A stretch of DNA of 55,693 bases from Candidatus Thorarchaeota archaeon SMTZ1-45 (GTDB lineage Archaea > Asgardarchaeota > Thorarchaeia > Thorarchaeales > Thorarchaeaceae), in NCBI GenBank assembly GCA_001563335.1, contig LRSL01000031.1, positions 1 through 55,693 on the forward strand, written 5' to 3'. Made by a program: the position numbers and the translations under genes. How positions within the stretch are numbered: position 1 is the stretch's first letter; each line of letters starts with the position of its first letter. The notes under the pieces are model-generated. The model saw only the letters and a program-made list of their open reading frames with translations. It did no database searches and had not been told where the DNA came from. Shown here in pieces: positions 18,115 to 44,270 of this stretch.

Positions 18115-18633
18115 TTATTCAAATGCGTCACCTTCAATCTTATTGACTCTCAGGTTTAGCAGAATCCTCAGTAGATATACAAAGAAACCGAGGAAGCCAA
18201 GAGAGAAGCAGAGATTATAGACCAGACCACCTGCTATAAGGTCAACAAATGGATTTCCAATGATTGGGAAGAAGGGATTCATTTCTATGTAAAGGAATGA
18301 GTCTAGAAACACATGCGAGTAGGTACCAATAATACTGGCTGGTAGAATGTGCCGAAAAGACGACTTTTGTTTCAGTCCGAAGAAAGATACAAGCTCATTG
18401 AAGTATTTTCTTAAGGGGTATATCCCAAATGAGAGAAGAATTGCGACAATTGTAGCTCCAAGATACGTATGGAAAAATGCATGTAGTGGCATTTGCATAT
18501 CAAAGATTATCACAGCAAGAGGTTCAAGATCTAAAATTACACTAGCGATCATTATGGTTGCAAAGTCGATATAAGGAAAAAGGAGAACTCCAATAAATAG
18601 TGCAGGACCAAAATGGAACGGAGTGAATGGCAT
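18115..18633 (-). CDS. Membrane-bound metal-dependent hydrolase-like protein (YdjM/DUF4184-like)
   Basis: MPFTPFHFGP start, DLEP, LHAFFHT and SHVFLDS motifs with TM helices. Confidence 0.7.
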   Translation of the reverse strand: MPFTPFHFGPALFIGVLLFPYIDFATIMIASVILDLEPLAVIIFDMQMPLHAFFHTYLGATIVAILLSFGIYPLRKYFNELVSFFGLKQKSSFRHILPASIIGTYSHVFLDSFLYIEMNPFFPIIGNPFVDLIAGGLVYNLCFSLGFLGFFVYLLRILLNLRVNKIEGDAFE

Positions 18634-19145: not shown

Positions 19146-19231
19146 TGGTCCAGAATCATCCAAATTATTCAGTTTTGAAACCATGTTTGAATTTCATGTA
19201 ATGGATGATGATGTAAGTAAATGCTGAGGTT

Positions 19232-19313
19232 GAAAAAGGAAATCCCCCGACCACCCCGTTGAGAACAGAAAGAAGGAGAACTAATCCGATCTTAATGTTC
19301 GGGAGATTTCTTG
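19232..19313 (-). ncRNA. Candidate ~75-80 nt small RNA (terminal stem, CU-rich loop)
   Basis: 12-bp stem, 19239-19250 with 19299-19310, which pairs fully (one G-U) only on the minus strand. U5 run after the stem. CGAAAAATATATTA BRE/TATA-like element about 25 nt upstream. Confidence 0.4.
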
Positions 19314-19521
19314 TTATATGTAAGATAATTACGTAATATATTTTTCGGTTCTTTATTATGTTACCAAAAGATATATTACTTGTAATGTGTAATACTATTT
19401 CAGGTGTTAAAGTGATTCAATTGCGTGATGATGACTTCAACTTGGCAAATGTTGGTTTGCATCGATTTACTGACATTGACTTCATCACTGAATCCTTACA
19501 CTAATACGGAGGAGATAGAGA

Positions 19522-20040
19522 ATGTTTAACAAAAGAACCCACAGGGTTGTATTTGCTGTAGGAGTCCTGCTCGTCCTGTCATTGGCTGCATTCGGTTCGA
19601 TGATTGCAGTGGCTTGGATGAGTATGAATAATACAATGGTAATGACTTCAGATGCATATTCCATTGAGAATAGCGCTGTTGAAACCAGTGCGGCTTTAGC
19701 TTGGCGGATTGATCCCAATACCGTGAGGATCCTTGACTACCGAGTTGATCCTAACACCGTGAAGATCCTTGACTTCCGAGTTGATCCTAACACCGTGAGG
19801 ATCCTTGACTACCGAGTTGATCCTAACACCGTGAGAATCCTTGACTTCAAAGACACTGCTAGAGTGGCAGACTTCAAGCTTGATCCTAGTGATGAAAGAA
19901 CAATTGACTTCAAAGAAACATCTGCAGGGGTTCATTTTCGAATTGATCCCAATACTGTAAGGATCCTTGACCACAAAGAGGAATTTAGAGCTTTATGCCC
20001 TGGTGGCGCCCACTATGCTTTCGACTACGTTCTATATTAG
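19522..20040 (+). CDS. Exported or membrane-anchored tandem-repeat protein (candidate multi-copy peptide precursor)
   Basis: GGAGGAG RBS at 19508-19514. N-terminal basic plus hydrophobic signal. Five near-identical R(I/V)DPNTV(R/K)ILD(Y/F/H) units plus degenerate units. Confidence 0.75.
   Translation: MFNKRTHRVVFAVGVLLVLSLAAFGSMIAVAWMSMNNTMVMTSDAYSIENSAVETSAALAWRIDPNTVRILDYRVDPNTVKILDFRVDPNTVRILDYRVDPNTVRILDFKDTARVADFKLDPSDERTIDFKETSAGVHFRIDPNTVRILDHKEEFRALCPGGAHYAFDYVLY
19705..19974 (+). repeat. 36-bp coding tandem repeat (4 contiguous copies, 1 degenerate, 1 dispersed)
   Basis: Units at 19705, 19741, 19777 and 19813 (consensus CGAGTTGATCCTAACACCGTGAGGATCCTTGACTAC), a degenerate unit at 19876 and a further copy at 19939-19974. 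Confidence 0.95.
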
Positions 20041-20135
20041 AAGAAAGTAGATTGATCGAATAAGGTAAACATGATTCATGGTCCACTAGATGGACTCACC
20101 CCAGGAAAAAAAAACGAAAGAAGGAGAACTTTAGT

Positions 20136-20465
20136 TTATTTTTCTTGAAATGCTTCAAAAGCATGCTTCTTAGCAGAATCGCGTAATTTCCGGATATCAG
20201 TTGCTTGGCTTTTTATCTCCTCAAAGAGGTCAATACGTGCAGATATAGCTTGTTCGACAAATGCAGATACAGCTTCAGACCTACTCTTAAAAATCTCAAG
20301 TTCGACTAAAGCATCTAAGATTTCGACAATATCGCCACTCATCCTAGTCATGACTGAAACTTCACGCTTCTTGGAAACAAGCTCTTCGTCAGATAGACGT
20401 CCAAGAAGCTGTTCGCGTAGGCTTAATTGTACACCCTCTGTTTTCGATGATTTCTCTTCTGCCAT
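20136..20465 (-). CDS. Ribbon-helix-helix (CopG/Arc/MetJ-like) regulator
   Basis: VSVMTRMSGDIVEILDALVELEIFKSRSEAVSAFV RHH pattern; GGTGA RBS before the ATG at 20465. Confidence 0.75.
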   Translation of the reverse strand: MAEEKSSKTEGVQLSLREQLLGRLSDEELVSKKREVSVMTRMSGDIVEILDALVELEIFKSRSEAVSAFVEQAISARIDLFEEIKSQATDIRKLRDSAKKHAFEAFQEK

Positions 20466-20481
20466 CTCTTTCACCTTATTT

Positions 20482-20541
20482 ATTTCATGTAATTATATGA
20501 TACAGACGCTTATATCTGTTTTTCATGTAATAGTATTACAT
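20482..20541. promoter_or_regulatory. Operator-like repeats and palindromes between the RHH gene and the hydrogenase operon
   Basis: TTTCATGTAAT at 20483 and 20521; perfect palindrome ATGTAATA-g-TATTACAT (20525-20541); near-palindrome TCATGTAATTATATGA. Confidence 0.5.
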
Positions 20542-20674
20542 AATTCAAGATATAAATTTCATGGTTAAGGAACGGATGCAAAAATACACTTTTGGCAAAA
20601 TGTTGGAACCAATGCAAACAGTCTTAACTTGAGATATCGCGCCTCTCGACGTTTCAAAAGGTCCTCATAAAAGG

Positions 20675-21715
20675 GTGTCAAGATTGCGCATATTGAAAAT
20701 GCAGCCAAAGTTTCTCGAGGTTTTCCTCGAGAGTCTGGACAAGTTTGGCCAGTTATATGGACCAAAACAAAAGAATGGAGTGTTGTCATATGACCGTCTT
20801 GAGAGCATATCCGAATTGGTCATCACTGACGAGCACCCTATGATTCCAATCAAGAAGTTATTTCATCCGATGCAGTTCACTATGATGCATTTCAATGAGA
20901 GAGGCTTCGAACCAGACTATTCTGTAATCGAGAAACGGGTCATATTAGGAGTTCATCCATGTGAGATACATAGTCTTCTAAGGCTAGACGATGTATTCCT
21001 CAGAAACCCAGTTGATCCATATTACTCAGGTCTGAGAAAGAATTCAGCAATAATTGGATTCTCGTGTCTTCCGACTGAGAACTCTCTTTGTTTCTCAACA
21101 GACACTGATATTGTTGAAGAGGGGTTTGATCTATTCTTTGTGAATCTGGGCGAGTTCTATCTTGTCTGGGTAGGGTCAAGCCTTGGCTATGACATGATAT
21201 ACCAGCGAGAGGAGTTCTTCGACGAAGATGTTACGCATGAAGATATCCAGATGTATATCGACTGGCGTCAGAAACGAAACAAGATGTTCAAGAAGAGCTT
21301 CGAATTCGACAGCATGCCAGACATTATGGAACTGAGTCACGATAGCGAAGTCTGGGACTATTTTGGGGACAAATGTCTTTCATGTGGTCAATGCTCTATG
21401 GTCTGCCCGACTTGTAATTGTTATAATGTTACAGATGTCTTTGATGTCACTAATGAAACAGTTGGGCGTCGTGACAGAGTATGGGATAGCTGCATGTTTG
21501 TTGATTATAGTCTCGTTGCTGGGGGACACAATTTTCGTGCATCCCGTGCAGACCGGCTAAGATTGTGGTATGGTCACAAGTTGAAGACTTTTGGAGTTGA
21601 TTATGGTCGTCCGGGATGTATTGGTTGCGGACGATGTGTTGACTCATGTCCAGTGGATATCAATGTCCTAACAATCTCAGAGGCTTTGACAACCAAGGAG
21701 GTGCCTAAACAATGA
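20675..21715 (+). CDS. hydB: Group 3b [NiFe] sulfhydrogenase beta subunit (Fe-S)
   Basis: GVHPCE, CLSCGQCSMVCPTCNC, RVWDSC and GCIGCGRCVDSCP. Confidence 0.9.
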   Translation: MSRLRILKMQPKFLEVFLESLDKFGQLYGPKQKNGVLSYDRLESISELVITDEHPMIPIKKLFHPMQFTMMHFNERGFEPDYSVIEKRVILGVHPCEIHSLLRLDDVFLRNPVDPYYSGLRKNSAIIGFSCLPTENSLCFSTDTDIVEEGFDLFFVNLGEFYLVWVGSSLGYDMIYQREEFFDEDVTHEDIQMYIDWRQKRNKMFKKSFEFDSMPDIMELSHDSEVWDYFGDKCLSCGQCSMVCPTCNCYNVTDVFDVTNETVGRRDRVWDSCMFVDYSLVAGGHNFRASRADRLRLWYGHKLKTFGVDYGRPGCIGCGRCVDSCPVDINVLTISEALTTKEVPKQ

Positions 21716-22560
21716 TTGTGAATGAGCAAATAGATAATCCATTCAAACCTAAGGCAGCTAGAATTGTGAGACATTATGATTTGATTAAGGACCACAGATT
21801 CTTCCAGATTAGACATATCGACATGAAGAAAGCCATGTCATTCACCTATAATCCGGGACAATTCATCATGGTATCAATACCCGGTGTAGGAGAAGCACCT
21901 TTTTCGATTTCATCTACGCCAAGTAGACCTGGTATTCTTGAACTAGGCATTAGAAAGGTTGGTAAACTGACTGAAGCATTGTTCAAGAAAAAGGACAACG
22001 ACGTAATCTACATTCGAGGACCTTATGGAAATGGCTTCAAACTAGACCAGATGGTCAATAAAGACCTCATAATAGTTGCTGGTGGATTAGGAGTAATACC
22101 TCTTCGGTCTATACTCTATTATGTTTTAGATAATAGAGACCAATTCAATCGAGTATTCTTTCTATATGGTACAAGGAGTCCTCAAGATTTTCTATTCAAA
22201 ACCGAGTTCTTTCAAATCAAAAAACGAGATGACATTGAATGCATGTACAGTGTTGATAGACCGGACAAGGACTGGACTGAAAATGTAGGTGTTGTGACTA
22301 AGTTATTCAAAGAGCTTCCAAAGATTGATCCAAAGGAAACTAATGCGGTTGTAGTTGGTCCACCTGTTATGTACAAATTTGTGATTGATGAGTTTCTAAA
22401 GCTTAAGATACCAAAGAACCAGATTCAGCTTTCTCTAGAGAGACGAATGAAATGCGGAATAGGCAAGTGTGGACATTGTGCTATTGAACATCTCTATACT
22501 TGTATGGATGGACCAGTGTTCACCTACTGGGACACGTTACACTTTAGGGAGTTGATCTAA
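21712..22560 (+). CDS. hydG: Sulfhydrogenase gamma subunit (FAD/NAD(P)-binding, [2Fe-2S])
   Basis: PGQF...GEAPFSIS, RGPYGNGF, AGGLG and SLERRMKCGIGKCGHC...CMDGPVF. Confidence 0.92.
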   Translation: MIVNEQIDNPFKPKAARIVRHYDLIKDHRFFQIRHIDMKKAMSFTYNPGQFIMVSIPGVGEAPFSISSTPSRPGILELGIRKVGKLTEALFKKKDNDVIYIRGPYGNGFKLDQMVNKDLIIVAGGLGVIPLRSILYYVLDNRDQFNRVFFLYGTRSPQDFLFKTEFFQIKKRDDIECMYSVDRPDKDWTENVGVVTKLFKELPKIDPKETNAVVVGPPVMYKFVIDEFLKLKIPKNQIQLSLERRMKCGIGKCGHCAIEHLYTCMDGPVFTYWDTLHFRELI

Positions 22561-22561
22561 G

Positions 22562-23338
22562 ATGACCACAACAGACAAACCAAAGGTTGGCATCTATGGC
22601 TTTACTGGCTGTGCAGGTGATCAGCTCCTAATCATTCATACTGAGGATGAAATCCTCAACCTATTTGGTGCTACTAACATCCAATCCTTTGTAATGGCCT
22701 CAAGTAATCCAATTGAAGGCGACCTTGATGTTGCCTTTATTGAAGGAAGCGTGAGCACAGAAGAAGAGAAAGAACATCTTCAAGAGATCAGAAAACGGTC
22801 TAAGATTTTGGTTGCAATCGGCAATTGTGCAGTCAATGGTGGCCCTCAAGCTATGTATACTGACGACGGAGGATACGAGAAGAGACTGTACAAAGTATAT
22901 GGCGAAGGTGTCAAGTTTGTATCTAAGCCCCTAGAAGCCAAGCCCATTGATACCTATGTTGAGGTGGACTATTACCTTCCGGGATGTCCAATAAGTCAAC
23001 CTCAGACATTTGCGTTAATTTCACGATTGATTCATGGAACAATACCTGAACCATATCCTCACCCCGTATGTCATGAGTGCAAGCTCAATGAGAACCATTG
23101 CTTGCTTCTTGATGAGAAGTTCTGTATTGGACCCATCACATTGGGAGGATGCGGATCAGCTTGTCCCAATCATGGGCTCCCTTGTGTGGGTTGCTGGGGA
23201 CCTAATGAGGACGGTAACTTCGCTCAGCATCTCAAGCTTCTTGAAAGCTTTGGACTAACCAAGGAAGAGATCATTCGACGTATCAGAGGGTTCGGGGGTT
23301 CAAAGATTATCAAATTCATTGAAAATGGAGGTAAATAG
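22562..23338 (+). CDS. hydD: Sulfhydrogenase delta ([NiFe] small) subunit
   Basis: IEGSV, AIGNCAVNGG, LPGCP, VCHEC and CIGPITLGGCGSACP...CVGCWG. Confidence 0.9.
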   Translation: MTTTDKPKVGIYGFTGCAGDQLLIIHTEDEILNLFGATNIQSFVMASSNPIEGDLDVAFIEGSVSTEEEKEHLQEIRKRSKILVAIGNCAVNGGPQAMYTDDGGYEKRLYKVYGEGVKFVSKPLEAKPIDTYVEVDYYLPGCPISQPQTFALISRLIHGTIPEPYPHPVCHECKLNENHCLLLDEKFCIGPITLGGCGSACPNHGLPCVGCWGPNEDGNFAQHLKLLESFGLTKEEIIRRIRGFGGSKIIKFIENGGK

Positions 23339-23339
23339 A

Positions 23340-24632
23340 ATGGCAAACAAGAGGAGTATCACTATCGAACCCCTAGCTAGAGTTGAAGGTCATGGAGGAA
23401 TAAAGGTCGAGATAAAGGACAATAAAGTAGACAATGTTGAGGTTCGTATCTTAGAGGGCCCACGTCTATTCGAGGAGTTAGTGCTAGGCAAAACACCTCA
23501 GGAGGACCTCAGTATCGTGCCTAGAATCTGTGCGATTTGTAACTTATCCCACAAGTATGCAGCACTCAGAGGGCTTGAGAAGGCAGTTGGTGTAAAGGTC
23601 GATTCTACAACTCATCTCTACAGAGAACTAATGCATCATGGAGAGATGATTGAAAGTCATAGTCTGCATATCTACTTTCTAGCATTACCGGATTTCCTTG
23701 GCTACGATAATGCTGTTGCAATGGCTGACAAGTATGGTGACACTGTGGCAAAAGCTCTGCAACTCAAAAAATTTGGGAACAAGATAATGCGGATGATGGG
23801 AGGGCGGATGATTCATGGTGAGAATCCAGTTATTGGGGGATTCAGCAGGCTTCCCTCAAAGGAAAATCTCACTAAGGTGAAAGAAGAAGCTATTGAACTA
23901 CTTGACTTTGCTTTAGCGACCATAGACTTGCTTGGGAATCTCGAAGTTCCGGATCATATGGAACGGGACACCCAGTTCCTTTGCTGTAAACCTCCAAGTG
24001 AGGAGTATGGATATCACGGTGACATCCTTATGACCTCTGATGGTGAGGAACATCCTGTTGAGAACTACAAGAACGTCATTAAGGAACGGGTTGTCAGTCA
24101 CAGTTTTGCGAAACGAAGTCAGTATAACGAGAAACCATTTACAGTAGGAGCACTTGCACGTGTCCTTTTGCTAGGAGAACGTCTAAAGGGAAAGGCCAAG
24201 CAATCGTATGATAAACTGATTACTGATCGGTGGTATCGTAATCCTCTATTCAACAATCATGCACAAGCTATTGAGCAGGTCTATTCGCTTGAAGGCATCA
24301 TCGATACTGTAAATCAGCTTCTCATCAGCGAAGATGCAAGGATTGCACAGCCAACACAGAAAACTGGTGTCGGTACAGGAGCTGTAGAAGCGCCTCGCGG
24401 GACCTTGATTCATCACTATGAGGTGAAGGAGGGGGTAATCGTAGCTGCAGACTTCATTACTCCGACAGCTATGTTTCTTGATGATATTGAAGCATTCATA
24501 CGAACTGGTGGTGATCATCTTCTCGCTATGAATCAGCTTGATAATATTGAACTCCAATTTGAGATGATAGCCAGAGCTTATGATCCATGTATTAGCTGCA
24601 GTGCTCATCTTGTTGAAGTTGTATACAAGTAG
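23340..24632 (+). CDS. hydA: Sulfhydrogenase alpha ([NiFe] large) subunit
   Basis: ARVEGH, L1 motif RICAIC, EAPRGTLIH, and L2 motif DPCISCSAH with a short cleavable C-terminal tail; GGAGGT RBS before 23340. Confidence 0.95.
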   Translation: MANKRSITIEPLARVEGHGGIKVEIKDNKVDNVEVRILEGPRLFEELVLGKTPQEDLSIVPRICAICNLSHKYAALRGLEKAVGVKVDSTTHLYRELMHHGEMIESHSLHIYFLALPDFLGYDNAVAMADKYGDTVAKALQLKKFGNKIMRMMGGRMIHGENPVIGGFSRLPSKENLTKVKEEAIELLDFALATIDLLGNLEVPDHMERDTQFLCCKPPSEEYGYHGDILMTSDGEEHPVENYKNVIKERVVSHSFAKRSQYNEKPFTVGALARVLLLGERLKGKAKQSYDKLITDRWYRNPLFNNHAQAIEQVYSLEGIIDTVNQLLISEDARIAQPTQKTGVGTGAVEAPRGTLIHHYEVKEGVIVAADFITPTAMFLDDIEAFIRTGGDHLLAMNQLDNIELQFEMIARAYDPCISCSAHLVEVVYK

Positions 24633-31045: not shown

Positions 31046-32371
31046 ATGCAGGAACCAGTTGGCACACTCGTATTACTTGTTTTCATTGGAACATATCTCA
31101 TGATCTCCAGTGAAAGAGTTAATCGTGCCGCAATGTCCATGGTGGGAATGGGAATTGTGGGATTAGTTCTATGGGTGTCTTTCACGACCTCAGGGGGAAC
31201 AATGGGAGCTACATTTTCCACTCTAGTGGAACATATAGAATGGGGAACTATTCTTTTCCTAATTGGGATGATGGGAATTGTTTCTGTAGCTCGCAACTCA
31301 GGAATGTTCCAATATATTGCATTAACTCTTGTCAAGCCCACAGGGGGTAATACCAAACGTCTATTCACAGTATTCATAGTCTTTGTTTTTGTGATATCTC
31401 TGGTTTTTGATACTACTTCTACAATATTGATTATGGGTCCATTAACAATAGAGGTCTGCAATGCACTTGAGATTGACTTCAAACCCTTTCTGATCTCAGA
31501 AGCTATCGTAGCCAATTTTGCTTCAATACCGTCAATTGTAGGCGCAGTTCCAAACCTTGTGATCGCAAATAAGATACTAGAAGAAGGTGTGACTGGATTT
31601 GATGCGTCTATCCTTTTTGTGACAATGATGCCCCTCTCTATCATATTATTGTTGATTTCGCTACCTCTGTTTTATAAAATGTTTAAGGATAAGCTACCAG
31701 ATTCAGAAGAAGAAGTACGGGAGGAGGTCTTTGTGGTTTCTCCTGTGCATATGATCAGATCTAGAAATGATTTCTATCTCTCTCTGGCTGCAATTGGGAT
31801 TCTTGTTTTAGCATTCACATGGGGACAGGGGTCTGGACTTGAACCACCTCTTGTTGCCATTATTGTGGCATTCTTTGTTCTACTTATGACCAGAGAGAGA
31901 GTGGAGGACATATTATCAAAGATTAATTGGAATACTGTGTTCTTCTTAATTGGAATTTTCGGACTTGTTGGTGCTCTGGAGATTGTCTTATTCATTTTTG
32001 ATGTCGGTGAGTTAGTAAAAGATATTGTATCTGAGAACACTGGAATCGCTGTAGCATTTCTCGTTTGGGTTCCGGCAGCACTTTCAGCGGTCATTGATAA
32101 CATCCCAGTATCAGTAGTTCTAGCACCCATAGCAGCAAGTCTAGCAGCTTCTTACACACCAGTTTTTCCAGCAATCCTCATATTCGCAGTGAACGTAGGA
32201 GGTTATGTTCTACCCATTGGTGCTCCAGCAAATATCCTTGCGATGGCATTATCTGAAGAACAACACGAGAGGATTAGTTTCAAGGATTTCTTAAAGATAG
32301 CAACTCCTTTGGCCATTCTCCATCTACTCATTGGAACGGGCTGGCTCTTTTTCATGTCGTTAATACTCTAG
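31046..32371 (+). CDS. ArsB/NhaD/SLC13 permease, paralog 3
   Basis: SERVNRA, IEWGTI, SAVIDNIP and PIGAPAN; multi-TM. Confidence 0.85.
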   Translation: MQEPVGTLVLLVFIGTYLMISSERVNRAAMSMVGMGIVGLVLWVSFTTSGGTMGATFSTLVEHIEWGTILFLIGMMGIVSVARNSGMFQYIALTLVKPTGGNTKRLFTVFIVFVFVISLVFDTTSTILIMGPLTIEVCNALEIDFKPFLISEAIVANFASIPSIVGAVPNLVIANKILEEGVTGFDASILFVTMMPLSIILLLISLPLFYKMFKDKLPDSEEEVREEVFVVSPVHMIRSRNDFYLSLAAIGILVLAFTWGQGSGLEPPLVAIIVAFFVLLMTRERVEDILSKINWNTVFFLIGIFGLVGALEIVLFIFDVGELVKDIVSENTGIAVAFLVWVPAALSAVIDNIPVSVVLAPIAASLAASYTPVFPAILIFAVNVGGYVLPIGAPANILAMALSEEQHERISFKDFLKIATPLAILHLLIGTGWLFFMSLIL

Positions 32372-43727: not shown

Positions 43728-44270
43728 TTACCACTTATTCCAATGTACAATCTCAGAAAGTTCCTTCCTCTTTCTCGGAGCCTTCTCCTTTTCTCTCGAC
43801 CGCTCATCAAGCATTTCGGGGTCGCCCTCATATCCAATGAATACAACAGTCACTATTCTATATTCATCCGGTATTCCTGCGATATCTTTGAGCTGGTCTT
43901 CGTTCCATCCTGATGTTGGATGTCCCATTAGTCCAAGATGAACAGTCTGAAGAAGCATATTTTCAACTGCTAGACCAACATCCATCATGAAATAAGGTAG
44001 TCCATGAGATGAGCAGCCTCCATCCTCCTTTGCAGCAACAATAATCATAACTGGTGCAGCTTTTGCATAAGCATTGCCTCTGCTTAGAGCCTCATGTGCT
44101 TTTGTTAATACTTCCGGTTCTTGAATCACCACAAAATTCCATGCTTGCGCGTTCATGCATGAAGGTGCCCATCTCCCAGCTTCAAGGATTGATTCAAGCA
44201 TATCTTCTGAGATTTGTTTGTTAGAAAAAGCTCTTCCACTGCGTCGCTTCATAATCTCCTCTAATATCAT
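43728..44270 (-). CDS. Nitroreductase family protein
   Basis: RRSGRAF, AGRWAPSCMNAQAW and DVGLAVENMLL...GL. Confidence 0.9.
   Translation of the reverse strand: MILEEIMKRRSGRAFSNKQISEDMLESILEAGRWAPSCMNAQAWNFVVIQEPEVLTKAHEALSRGNAYAKAAPVMIIVAAKEDGGCSSHGLPYFMMDVGLAVENMLLQTVHLGLMGHPTSGWNEDQLKDIAGIPDEYRIVTVVFIGYEGDPEMLDERSREKEKAPRKRKELSEIVHWNKW

Follow-up and report, generated by a model that had tools for sequence, protein, structure and literature searches.

Small RNAs (sRNAs) that bind the 3' untranslated regions (UTRs) of messenger RNAs are documented in archaea, the described cases including sRNA257(1) of Sulfolobus solfataricus, which acts on Sso1183, and asR3 of Pyrobaculum, which acts on tpi (PMC4152357). 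A hairpin in the genome of the Asgard archaeon Candidatus Thorarchaeota archaeon SMTZ1-45 is very probably the gene of a conserved Thorarchaeota small RNA, a candidate transcript of the minus strand that could act on a neighbouring gene in a similar manner. It lies in a contig stretch of 55.7 kb, which was analysed whole and is called the window here. Like sRNA257(1) and asR3 as the source presents them, the candidate is an archaeal noncoding RNA complementary to the predicted 3' untranslated end of an mRNA, and as with asR3 the presumed target is a conserved structured element just after a stop codon. The complementarity amounts to 15 + 7 nt, unlike the ~60 nt given for sRNA257(1) (PMC4152357). 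No sequence relation to either RNA exists, and in contrast to both the candidate gene stands divergent beside its presumed target, belongs to an Asgard lineage and is known from sequence alone. Literature searches returned no description of a Thorarchaeota or Asgard sRNA. Asgard regulatory RNAs are essentially uncharted, and the locus provides a well-defined candidate with a 72-nt RNA, a promoter box, a palindrome, a terminator and a target site. If the predicted pairing occurs, sRNA targeting of 3' UTRs would extend to the archaeal lineage nearest eukaryotes.

The candidate is divergent from a gene for a membrane protein with variable repeats (the repeat gene). This is followed by a convergent gene for a small ribbon-helix-helix (RHH)-like protein and then by a hydrogenase operon. 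Bacterial type I toxin-antitoxin pairs have either a divergent sRNA (tisB/istR-1, shoB/ohsC, zorO/orzO) or one that overlaps the toxin gene at its 3' end (txpA/RatA, bsrG/SR4). As in such pairs, the sRNA gene adjoins a membrane-protein gene and has short perfect complementarity to the predicted mRNA of this neighbour: 15 + 7 nt in its 3' flank, at all four loci compared below, if the flank is assumed to be part of the mRNA. Unlike in type I pairs, the complementarity falls in the 3' UTR of a divergent gene rather than in a 5' UTR, the two genes have no physical overlap, promoter and terminator are archaeal, and there is no sign of toxicity. The first-pass annotation of the window, made from its letters without database searches, had considered type I toxin-antitoxin logic. 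We abandon that part of it, since the neighbour is a protein of 172 amino acids (aa) with a variable repeat domain, of which only the N-terminal ~40 aa are hydrophobic, and not a small hydrophobic toxin peptide of up to ~60 aa. In pMV158-type plasmids, the RHH repressor CopG and the antisense RNA II jointly control copy number. The present locus likewise combines a putative RHH repressor with a small antisense RNA that might act on one neighbouring gene. Unlike that system, it is chromosomal, sits beside a hydrogenase operon, has no replication gene, and its RNA is not cis-antisense to the leader of the target.

A third comparison is with Mycobacterium, where AbmR and Mcr11 are described as a transcription factor and an adjacent sRNA under one operator, AbmR also binding RNA (10.1101/2021.09.03.458936). 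As in that description, one operator-like repeat is found here in the promoters of both a small regulator gene and an sRNA gene close to it, and a weak match between the RHH-like protein and the AbmR model of NCBIfam spans the putative nucleic-acid-binding region of AbmR. The match is sub-threshold (E 8.2e-5, 22.3 bits vs a cut-off of 160) and a lead at most, the protein has 109 aa vs 167 model positions, and unlike for AbmR its binding is putative. The operators also differ, being GTAA-N5-TTAC here and ATGN5 repeats in the published account of AbmR-Mcr11.

Related loci were collected by one scan of genome contigs with an alignment of the repeat protein, which gave 65 pattern matches, four of them confirmed as loci (L001 to L004). 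All four come from metagenome-assembled genomes (MAGs) of Thorarchaeota or of uncultured archaea, and their repeat proteins are 52%, 62%, 42% and 33% identical to that of the window, respectively. L004 is truncated at a contig end and has no upstream region; comparisons of the sRNA, its promoter, its T-run and the 3' motif therefore concern the window, L001, L002 and L003, which are the "four loci" of the following text. The hairpin is divergent from the repeat gene in each. To its left the neighbouring gene varies, being a NUDIX gene in the window, a YdjM-like gene in L002 and a radical-SAM gene in both L001 and L003, and the order on the right is constant: repeat gene on the plus strand, RHH-like gene of 109-110 aa on the minus strand, hydrogenase operon on the plus strand. 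No same-strand gene follows the sRNA downstream on the minus strand. The parts of the element in the window are these:

19233 to 19310, minus strand: predicted sRNA transcript, consisting of the 72-nt conserved core (19310 to 19239), a C and a T5 run (19237 to 19233)
19299 to 19310, minus strand: 5' arm of the terminal stem, GAAAUCUCCCGA, with pairing extendable to 19295-19297 past one mismatch
19239 to 19250, minus strand: 3' arm of the terminal stem, UCGGGGGAUUUC, followed by CUUUUUC
19251 to 19281, minus strand: 31-nt single-stranded core, GUUCUCCUUCUUUCUGUUCUCAACGGGGUGG, RNA positions 30 to 60, identical in all four loci
19334 to 19347, minus strand: promoter resembling a B recognition element (BRE) and TATA box, CGAAAAATATATTA, 23 nt before the stem

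The 72-nt core is far more alike between loci than the four-fold degenerate sites of the neighbouring genes and is therefore constrained at the nucleotide level. Pairwise, 62-71 of its 72 nt are identical (86-99%). For the same genome pairs, 7-15 of 23-28 four-fold degenerate sites are identical in the RHH-like gene, and hydB has 15-23 of 35-38 identical, or 27-64% overall; the repeat proteins are just 42-62% identical. Identity drops sharply outside both arms of the stem, including in the variable 20-nt spacer that separates it from the TATA box.

The terminal stem has 12 bp around a 48-nt loop, and an extended form adds three further pairs beyond a mismatch. When the 15 pairs of this extended stem are aligned over the four loci, 59 of the 60 cells are paired on the minus strand, compared with 40-65% in a control in which the partner is slid by 1-3 columns. 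The pattern of change is strand-specific. One-sided substitutions exchange A-U with G-U and C-G with U-G, and one U-G pair is invariant; all of these form wobbles on the minus strand but C-A mismatches if read on the plus strand, as does the single G-U pair of the 12-bp stem in the window. When a covariance model is built on the minus strand, the element scores 105.9-111.3 bits there vs 21.9-25.2 bits on the plus strand. The next-best match of the model in 95,645 bases reaches 12.6 bits (E 0.65). Each locus therefore has a single copy, and the element does not form a dispersed family.

Some observations count against the hairpin. None of the 15 pairs changes on both sides and 12 pairs are invariant, so that there is no true covariation, and the structure therefore rests on conservation together with the one-sided changes. 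The comparison is limited to four loci. Folding of the single sequence is weak and favours neither strand: the minus strand folds at -25.7 kcal/mol (z -2.17, with 6 of 200 shuffles as good) and the plus strand at -22.3 kcal/mol (z -3.58, 0 of 200). In our reading of these data the decisive support for the hairpin comes from comparison across genomes, not from folding.

The first-pass annotation had proposed this divergent minus-strand sRNA gene from a BRE/TATA-like sequence at 19347-19334, a stem with a 48-nt loop and a CUUUUU tail, and a G-U pair that is a C-A mismatch on the other strand. The promoter sequence is present as described with the stem 23 nt after it, stem, loop and tail agree letter by letter on the minus strand, and so does the wobble pair. 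The gene itself is borne out by the retention of element, promoter box, spacing and T-run in all four loci and by stem changes that are tolerated on the minus strand only. Stem conservation at orthologous loci, which it had named as a check, is what the 59 paired cells display. The covariation that it had suggested looking for in related genomes is absent from the stem, where the changes are one-sided and none is double-sided.

A ATATATTA box occupies positions -31 to -24 relative to the first stem base in all four loci and is preceded by a BRE-like (C/A)GAAA. At the other end, a run of four or five T starts 2-9 nt beyond the last stem base in each locus; U-tracts are described as archaeal terminators (PMC8716108). 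The element thus has a promoter box and a T-run of its own at all four loci, as expected of an independently transcribed sRNA that targets 3' UTRs. It also appears to be noncoding: neither strand has an open reading frame (ORF) of at least 30 aa, and a small ORF is without a start codon in the window. Transcription would start ~24 nt past the BRE/TATA box, at or near 19310, and end at the oligo-T run after the stem, giving an independently transcribed sRNA of ~75-80 nt that is apparently specific to a Thorarchaeota lineage. The 12-15 bp terminal stem would join its two ends and expose an invariant, pyrimidine-rich (CU-rich) loop. A scan for bacterial promoters and terminators found 4 promoter-like sites vs 6.0 expected and is uninformative for an archaeon.

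The loop contains a 15-mer, AGUUCUCCUUCUUUC, at 19282-19268 on the minus strand, with a predicted mean unpaired probability of 0.43-0.51. The region of the 31-nt core thus carries both this 15-mer and a GGGGUGG block (19257-19251). Each has a counterpart in the 3' flank of the repeat gene:

20116 to 20130, plus strand: GAAAGAAGGAGAACT, exact complement of the sRNA 15-mer, with an A9 run before it at 20106-20114 (T9 on the minus strand) and a T5 run after it at 20139-20143
20096 to 20102, plus strand: UCACCCC, complementary to the GGGGUGG block of the sRNA
20080 to 20096, plus strand: 3'-flank hairpin of 6 pairs, with 22 of 24 cells paired over the four loci and 2 pairs changed on both sides

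The exact complementarity of the 15-mer exceeds chance. Among 500 shuffled loops, none had a 15-nt exact complement in the whole window, the longest being 14 nt (4 of 500), and none had one on the plus strand between 19351 and 20600, where the longest was 13 nt (1 of 500). The complementarity is also conserved, as it should be for an sRNA that targets a 3' UTR. GAAAGAAGGAGAAC is found again downstream of the repeat gene in L001, L002 and L003, and the 3' motif is the longest Watson-Crick complement of the loop within each of the four loci. The conserved 3' block consists, in plus-strand order, of UCAU(G/A)G, a hairpin of 5-7 bp, the heptamer (U/C)C(A/G)CCCC, a spacer rich in A, ACGAAAGAAGGAGAAC and a T-rich stretch. 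The hairpin in this block is not significant with four sequences, as 74 of 500 shuffles match its pairing and covariation score.

Substitutions in the block tend to leave the predicted pairing with the sRNA intact. The heptamer varies as UCACCCC, UCACCCC, CCACCCC and CCGCCCC, and all 28 cells pair with the invariant GGGGUGG block if G-U is allowed; the changes from U to C and from A to G are both compatible with pairing. In L003 the terminal pair of the 15-mer is altered on both sides (A-U to U-G) and pairing is kept. The predicted gain in energy from dimer formation of the sRNA with the 3' flank ranges from -6.8 to -14.3 kcal/mol across the four loci and is equalled by 2, 0, 0 and 0 of 100 shuffled flanks, for predicted dimers that open the terminal stem and may be unrealistic in that respect. 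The block lies 53-80 nt beyond the repeat-gene stop codon in all four loci, and L003 has its own T7 run on the plus strand directly after the motif. In L004 a frameshift and stop codons disrupt the repeat gene; the motif is absent there and the RHH-like gene is intact.

A third conserved signal is a 13-bp palindrome of the form GTAA-N5-TTAC, which occurs exactly twice in the window, once in the sRNA promoter and once in the promoter of the RHH-like gene:

19320 to 19332, palindromic: GTAA-N5-TTAC between the TATA box and the RNA start
20527 to 20539, palindromic: second GTAA-N5-TTAC, in the RHH-like gene promoter
19363 to 19401, plus strand: mirror-image repeat-gene promoter, ACCAAAAGATATATTAC, with inverted repeats I1 and I2, a conserved alignment block
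19389 to 19401, plus strand: degenerate operator, GTAATACTATTTC, one mismatch from GTAA-N5-TTAC, after the repeat-gene TATA box

The same arrangement is found in L001 (5796-5808 and 6984-6996), L002 (5828-5840 and 6852-6864) and L003 (5803-5815 and 7377-7389), and L004 retains the copy at the RHH-like promoter (656-668), so that 9 of 9 occurrences over five loci fall at these two promoters. For the window alone the count is 2 vs 0.51 expected, and at least two are found in 11 of 100 shuffles. The sequence is likely to be the operator of the putative Thorarchaeota regulator located divergent from the hydrogenase operon. Because the palindrome is common to the sRNA and RHH-like promoters, the sRNA is probably repressed by the same factor. 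The promoters of the sRNA and the repeat gene also form the arms of a 17-nt inverted repeat (I2), 13 nt apart. Separately, the promoter regions of the repeat gene (19380-19401, plus strand) and the RHH-like gene (20483-20545, plus strand) form a 40-nt inverted repeat that is 75% complementary, and both carry repeated TTTCATGTAAT / TGTAAT motifs that resemble arrays of GTAA/TTAC half-sites.

Together, these features suggest a trans-acting sRNA that pairs with a 3' UTR and is gated through a shared operator, a mechanism that we hold, as a whole, to be slightly short of evenly balanced. The loop would pair over 15 nt and 7 nt with the purine-rich element at the 3' end of the repeat-gene mRNA, beside its U-tract, and the pairing would alter the stability or the 3'-end fate of this mRNA. 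Transcription of the sRNA would be gated through the operator that it has in common with the RHH-like gene, and the repressor would most simply be the RHH-like protein itself. If so, regulator, sRNA and target site would constitute a compact, testable circuit within 1.4 kb.

Several observations speak against this mechanism. The duplex energy of the 3' site (-35.8 kcal/mol) is beaten by unrelated sites at 31211-31260 on the plus strand (-38.0 kcal/mol) and 43776-43825 on the minus strand (-37.3 kcal/mol). This energy scan of the whole window fails to single out the 3' site, since long loose duplexes bring unrelated places up to its score, and contiguous pairing and conservation were therefore used as criteria. 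The pair-preserving substitutions are few (~4 events), and we estimate the probability that they arose by chance at roughly 4-10%. On the plus strand of L002 no T run of four or more follows the motif, and one wobble in the L002 3'-flank hairpin suits the minus strand better. The RHH identity of the putative regulator has no above-threshold match in Pfam, the PDB or Foldseek. Finally, an equally good reading of the 15-mer is that it copies, on the same strand, the 3' end of the convergent RHH-like mRNA, and in all four loci the motif has a T4-T9 run after it on the minus strand.

This last point leads to the alternative that survives best, in which the loop would be a mimic or decoy. Its AGUUCUCCUUCUUUC followed by U-rich sequence would copy the RHH-like mRNA 3' end, and both RNAs would bind a common partner that the sRNA titrates. 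This partner might be a protein, for instance an Sm-like one or the RHH-like protein itself; alternatively, the two RNAs would be competitors for the repeat-gene 3' UTR. The minus-strand T-runs fit such copying, as does the position of the motif 5-6 nt beyond the RHH-like stop codon in three of the four loci. In L003, however, it lies 131 nt from that stop and 53 nt from the stop of the repeat gene, and the loss of the motif from L004 beside an intact RHH-like gene also tells against mimicry. The occurrence of GTAA-N5-TTAC at both the sRNA and the RHH-like gene is in favour of mimicry, as are the sub-threshold resemblance to AbmR, which binds RNA and an operator shared with an sRNA gene, and sub-threshold matches to the C-terminal domain of TyrRS in 16 of 18 family members; every one of these protein similarities is nevertheless below threshold. 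The observed substitutions keep antisense pairing, and the conserved GGGGUG block (the complement of the heptamer) and the hairpin are located past the minus-strand T-run and so outside an RHH-like mRNA that ends there. We consider mimicry unlikely on balance and retain pairing with the repeat-gene 3' UTR as the preferred interpretation.

It may be that the two convergent mRNAs both terminate in this block, their 3' ends being complementary. The features could also be joined in a three-part circuit in which the regulator gene, the sRNA and the membrane-protein gene are wired by one operator and one 15-nt RNA motif. The sRNA loop would duplicate the 3' end of the convergent regulator mRNA, and these two RNAs, each complementary to the membrane-protein 3' UTR, would compete for the same site in it. 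We put this forward as a doubtful extension, taking the wiring and the competition jointly. If true, it would amount to competing-RNA-style control through a 3' UTR in the closest archaeal relatives of eukaryotes, adjoining and possibly coupled to a group 3b [NiFe] hydrogenase operon.

A second alternative, which the first-pass annotation had also raised, places the target at the other end of the repeat gene. There the CU-rich loop would act as an anti-Shine-Dalgarno mimic that blocks translation, with the 3' motif perhaps a competing site. The sequence concerned is this:

19508 to 19515, plus strand: the repeat gene's ribosome-binding site (RBS), GGAGGAGA, with the ATG (19522) 6 nt further on

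In the window and L002, the loop segment UCUCCUUC can indeed form 8 bp with GGAGGAGA, and the 3' motif contains a Shine-Dalgarno-like AGGAG. However, pairing with the 48-nt loop that is no weaker (8 bp or more, one G-U at most) is available at 582 positions of the window (5.2 per kb per strand), and the RBS duplex has an energy of -18.9 kcal/mol vs -32 to -38 kcal/mol at many unrelated 50-nt windows. L001 (AGAGGAGA) retains 7 bp of this pairing and L003 (GGAGAAGA) 6 bp, the RBS varying and the invariant loop not following it. Occlusion of the RBS is thus very unlikely. Of the annotation's claim that the sRNA targets its neighbour, the part that stands is the complementarity to the 3' flank: the exact 15-nt match at 20116-20130 was recovered, is matched at four loci and is accompanied by the 7-nt block, and the RBS pairing is at chance level. 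The energy checks that it had suggested likewise leave the fold weak on either strand and separate the RBS duplex from the 3' site by the values given. A conserved CUGAAUCC block in the repeat-gene 5' UTR was rejected as a target as well, because its pairing with the sRNA covers just 3-5 bp and is not conserved.

The minus-strand RNA might instead encode a hydrophobic, toxin-like membrane peptide (MKIGLVLLLSVLNGVVGGF...), which we judge highly improbable. In L001, L002 and L003, an ATG at RNA position 15 begins ORFs that run for 23, 26 and 41 codons and have hydrophobic first residues, and one change, ATC to ATT, is synonymous. The window, in contrast, has ATT in place of this ATG and no in-frame ATG, GTG or TTG after the upstream stop. 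The position of the stop codon varies, L003 has non-conservative replacements (L to N, V to D), no Shine-Dalgarno sequence precedes the ATG, and the ATG falls inside the extended stem. Ten successive codons are without a synonymous change where nearby four-fold sites are 27-64% identical, which points to constraint at the RNA level.

The weakest alternative, that the two CACCCC-N-GAAAGAAGGAGAAC copies are direct repeats (D4) bracketing a mobile repeat-gene cassette and the hairpin is incidental, is suggested by their spacing of 848 bp around exactly one gene, by a left flank that differs between genomes and by the small size of the repeat-protein family (11 clusters and 23 representatives vs 298 RHH-like clusters), but it is very improbable because no recombinase is nearby, each locus has one copy with none elsewhere in 95.6 kb and no match in the phage collection, and the 72-nt hairpin, its strand-specific G-U pattern and the fixed promoter/terminator geometry would be left unexplained.

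Membership in described classes was considered next to these readings. The Rfam search that the first-pass annotation had proposed brought no family: Rfam 15 at gathering thresholds has 0 matches in the whole window, and at E <=10 there are three weak matches between 18900 and 20400, none of them on the minus strand at 19239-19310. ARAGORN found 0 tRNA or transfer-messenger RNA genes in the window. The hallmark of C/D box sRNAs is a C box (RUGAUGA) and a D box (CUGA) flanking 10-12-nt guides, and neither box is within the 72-nt minus-strand RNA. H/ACA sRNAs have an ACA box directly 3' of a hairpin with a K-turn or K-loop in the upper stem. In the four loci the stem is followed by CUUUUUC, GAAAUUA, GUCAUUC and UCUACUC, with no conserved ACA, and no tandem G-A motif was apparent on reading. 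A miniature inverted-repeat transposable element (MITE)-like repeat was rejected on the single copy per locus and the 12.6 bits of the next model match. The hairpin is also a poor candidate for the terminator of an upstream gene, since different genes adjoin it on the left from locus to locus and no T-run follows the stem on the plus strand. A selenocysteine insertion sequence (SECIS) or other selenoprotein link was set aside because the flanking genes have no in-frame UGA and Rfam gave no SECIS match. A blastn search of the phage collection with 19150-20600 found no match.

Two further sequences at or near the element were examined. A C/D-box-like stretch at 19201-19252 on the plus strand (AUGAUGA, 12 nt, CUGA) matches sR30 at 14.7 bits vs a threshold of 38 (E 0.87); it is mostly outside the element, and since L001-L003 do not conserve this flank, the match is probably due to chance. 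A plus-strand ORF of 13 codons, MFGRFLVICKIIT (19296-19337), has the same length in all four loci because the spacing from TATA box to stem is fixed. It was rejected as a gene, since its middle codons vary freely and the nearest GGAG is 16 nt from the ATG.

Other possible targets were judged to be chance matches. Allowing up to 3 mismatches, the 15-mer has 4 matches in the window where 2.64 are expected, a count equalled by 26 of 100 shuffles and by itself not significant. A third near-copy at 18575-18589 falls within a YdjM-like ORF. The gene for the hydrogenase large subunit has potential sites at 24051-24065 on the plus strand of the window (15 bp, 2 G-U) and at 11185-11197 of L001 and 11053-11066 of L002 (13-14 bp, 3-4 G-U). 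Their location within the gene is not the same from genome to genome, and by our estimate chance would give ~1.4 sites of this kind.

The genes to the right of the hairpin are as follows:

19522 to 20040, plus strand: repeat-protein gene, 172 aa, with an N-terminal membrane helix followed by variable 12-aa repeats (36-nt tandem repeats)
20136 to 20465, minus strand: RHH-like gene, 109 aa, convergent, its stop codon 5 nt from the 15-mer
20675 to 24632, plus strand: hydrogenase operon of four genes, resembling a sulfhydrogenase or NAD(P)-dependent group 3b [NiFe] hydrogenase

The first ~40 aa of the repeat protein are near-invariant and hydrophobic (MFNKRxHRVVFAxGVLLVLSLAAFGSMIAVAWMSMNN). The C-terminal repeats change rapidly, from DPNTVRILDF in the window to VDRLVYFENA in L003. 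Copies of the gene in other loci include one at 6001-6795 of L003, which contains an assembly gap of Ns, and the broken one at 1-280 of L004. Among clusters at 90% identity 11 relatives have E <=0.001, and a profile search of 1.84 billion representatives gave 23 at the same threshold. The homologues listed have 123-172 aa, apart from a 264-aa ORF that spans the assembly gap in L003, and the nearest named relative is a protein of Candidatus Thorarchaeota archaeon SMTZ-45 with 91% identity. The repeat protein has no Pfam family, and NCBIfam and the protein atlas contain nothing usable for it.

The RHH-like family is common across Thorarchaeota and comprises 298 protein clusters, nearly all from this group where they are named, and identity among the best 120 of these 298 is 72-95%. 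Several homologues are named Arc/MetJ-type ribbon-helix-helix proteins by JGI. Pfam RHH_1 matches 1 of 18 family members (E 0.013), and comparison with the PDB gave no sequence or profile match below E 0.3. An AlphaFold model of the monomer is all-helical, with a mean predicted local distance difference test (pLDDT) score of 72.8 and 0 Foldseek matches. Whatever its fold, the locus draws attention to this highly conserved and unstudied small putative regulator beside a cytosolic hydrogenase operon of Thorarchaeota. The four subunits of that operon (beta, gamma, delta and alpha) match NCBIfam models with E from 1e-54 to 1e-117, all under the equivalog cut-offs, and the operon is syntenic with the sRNA module in all loci.

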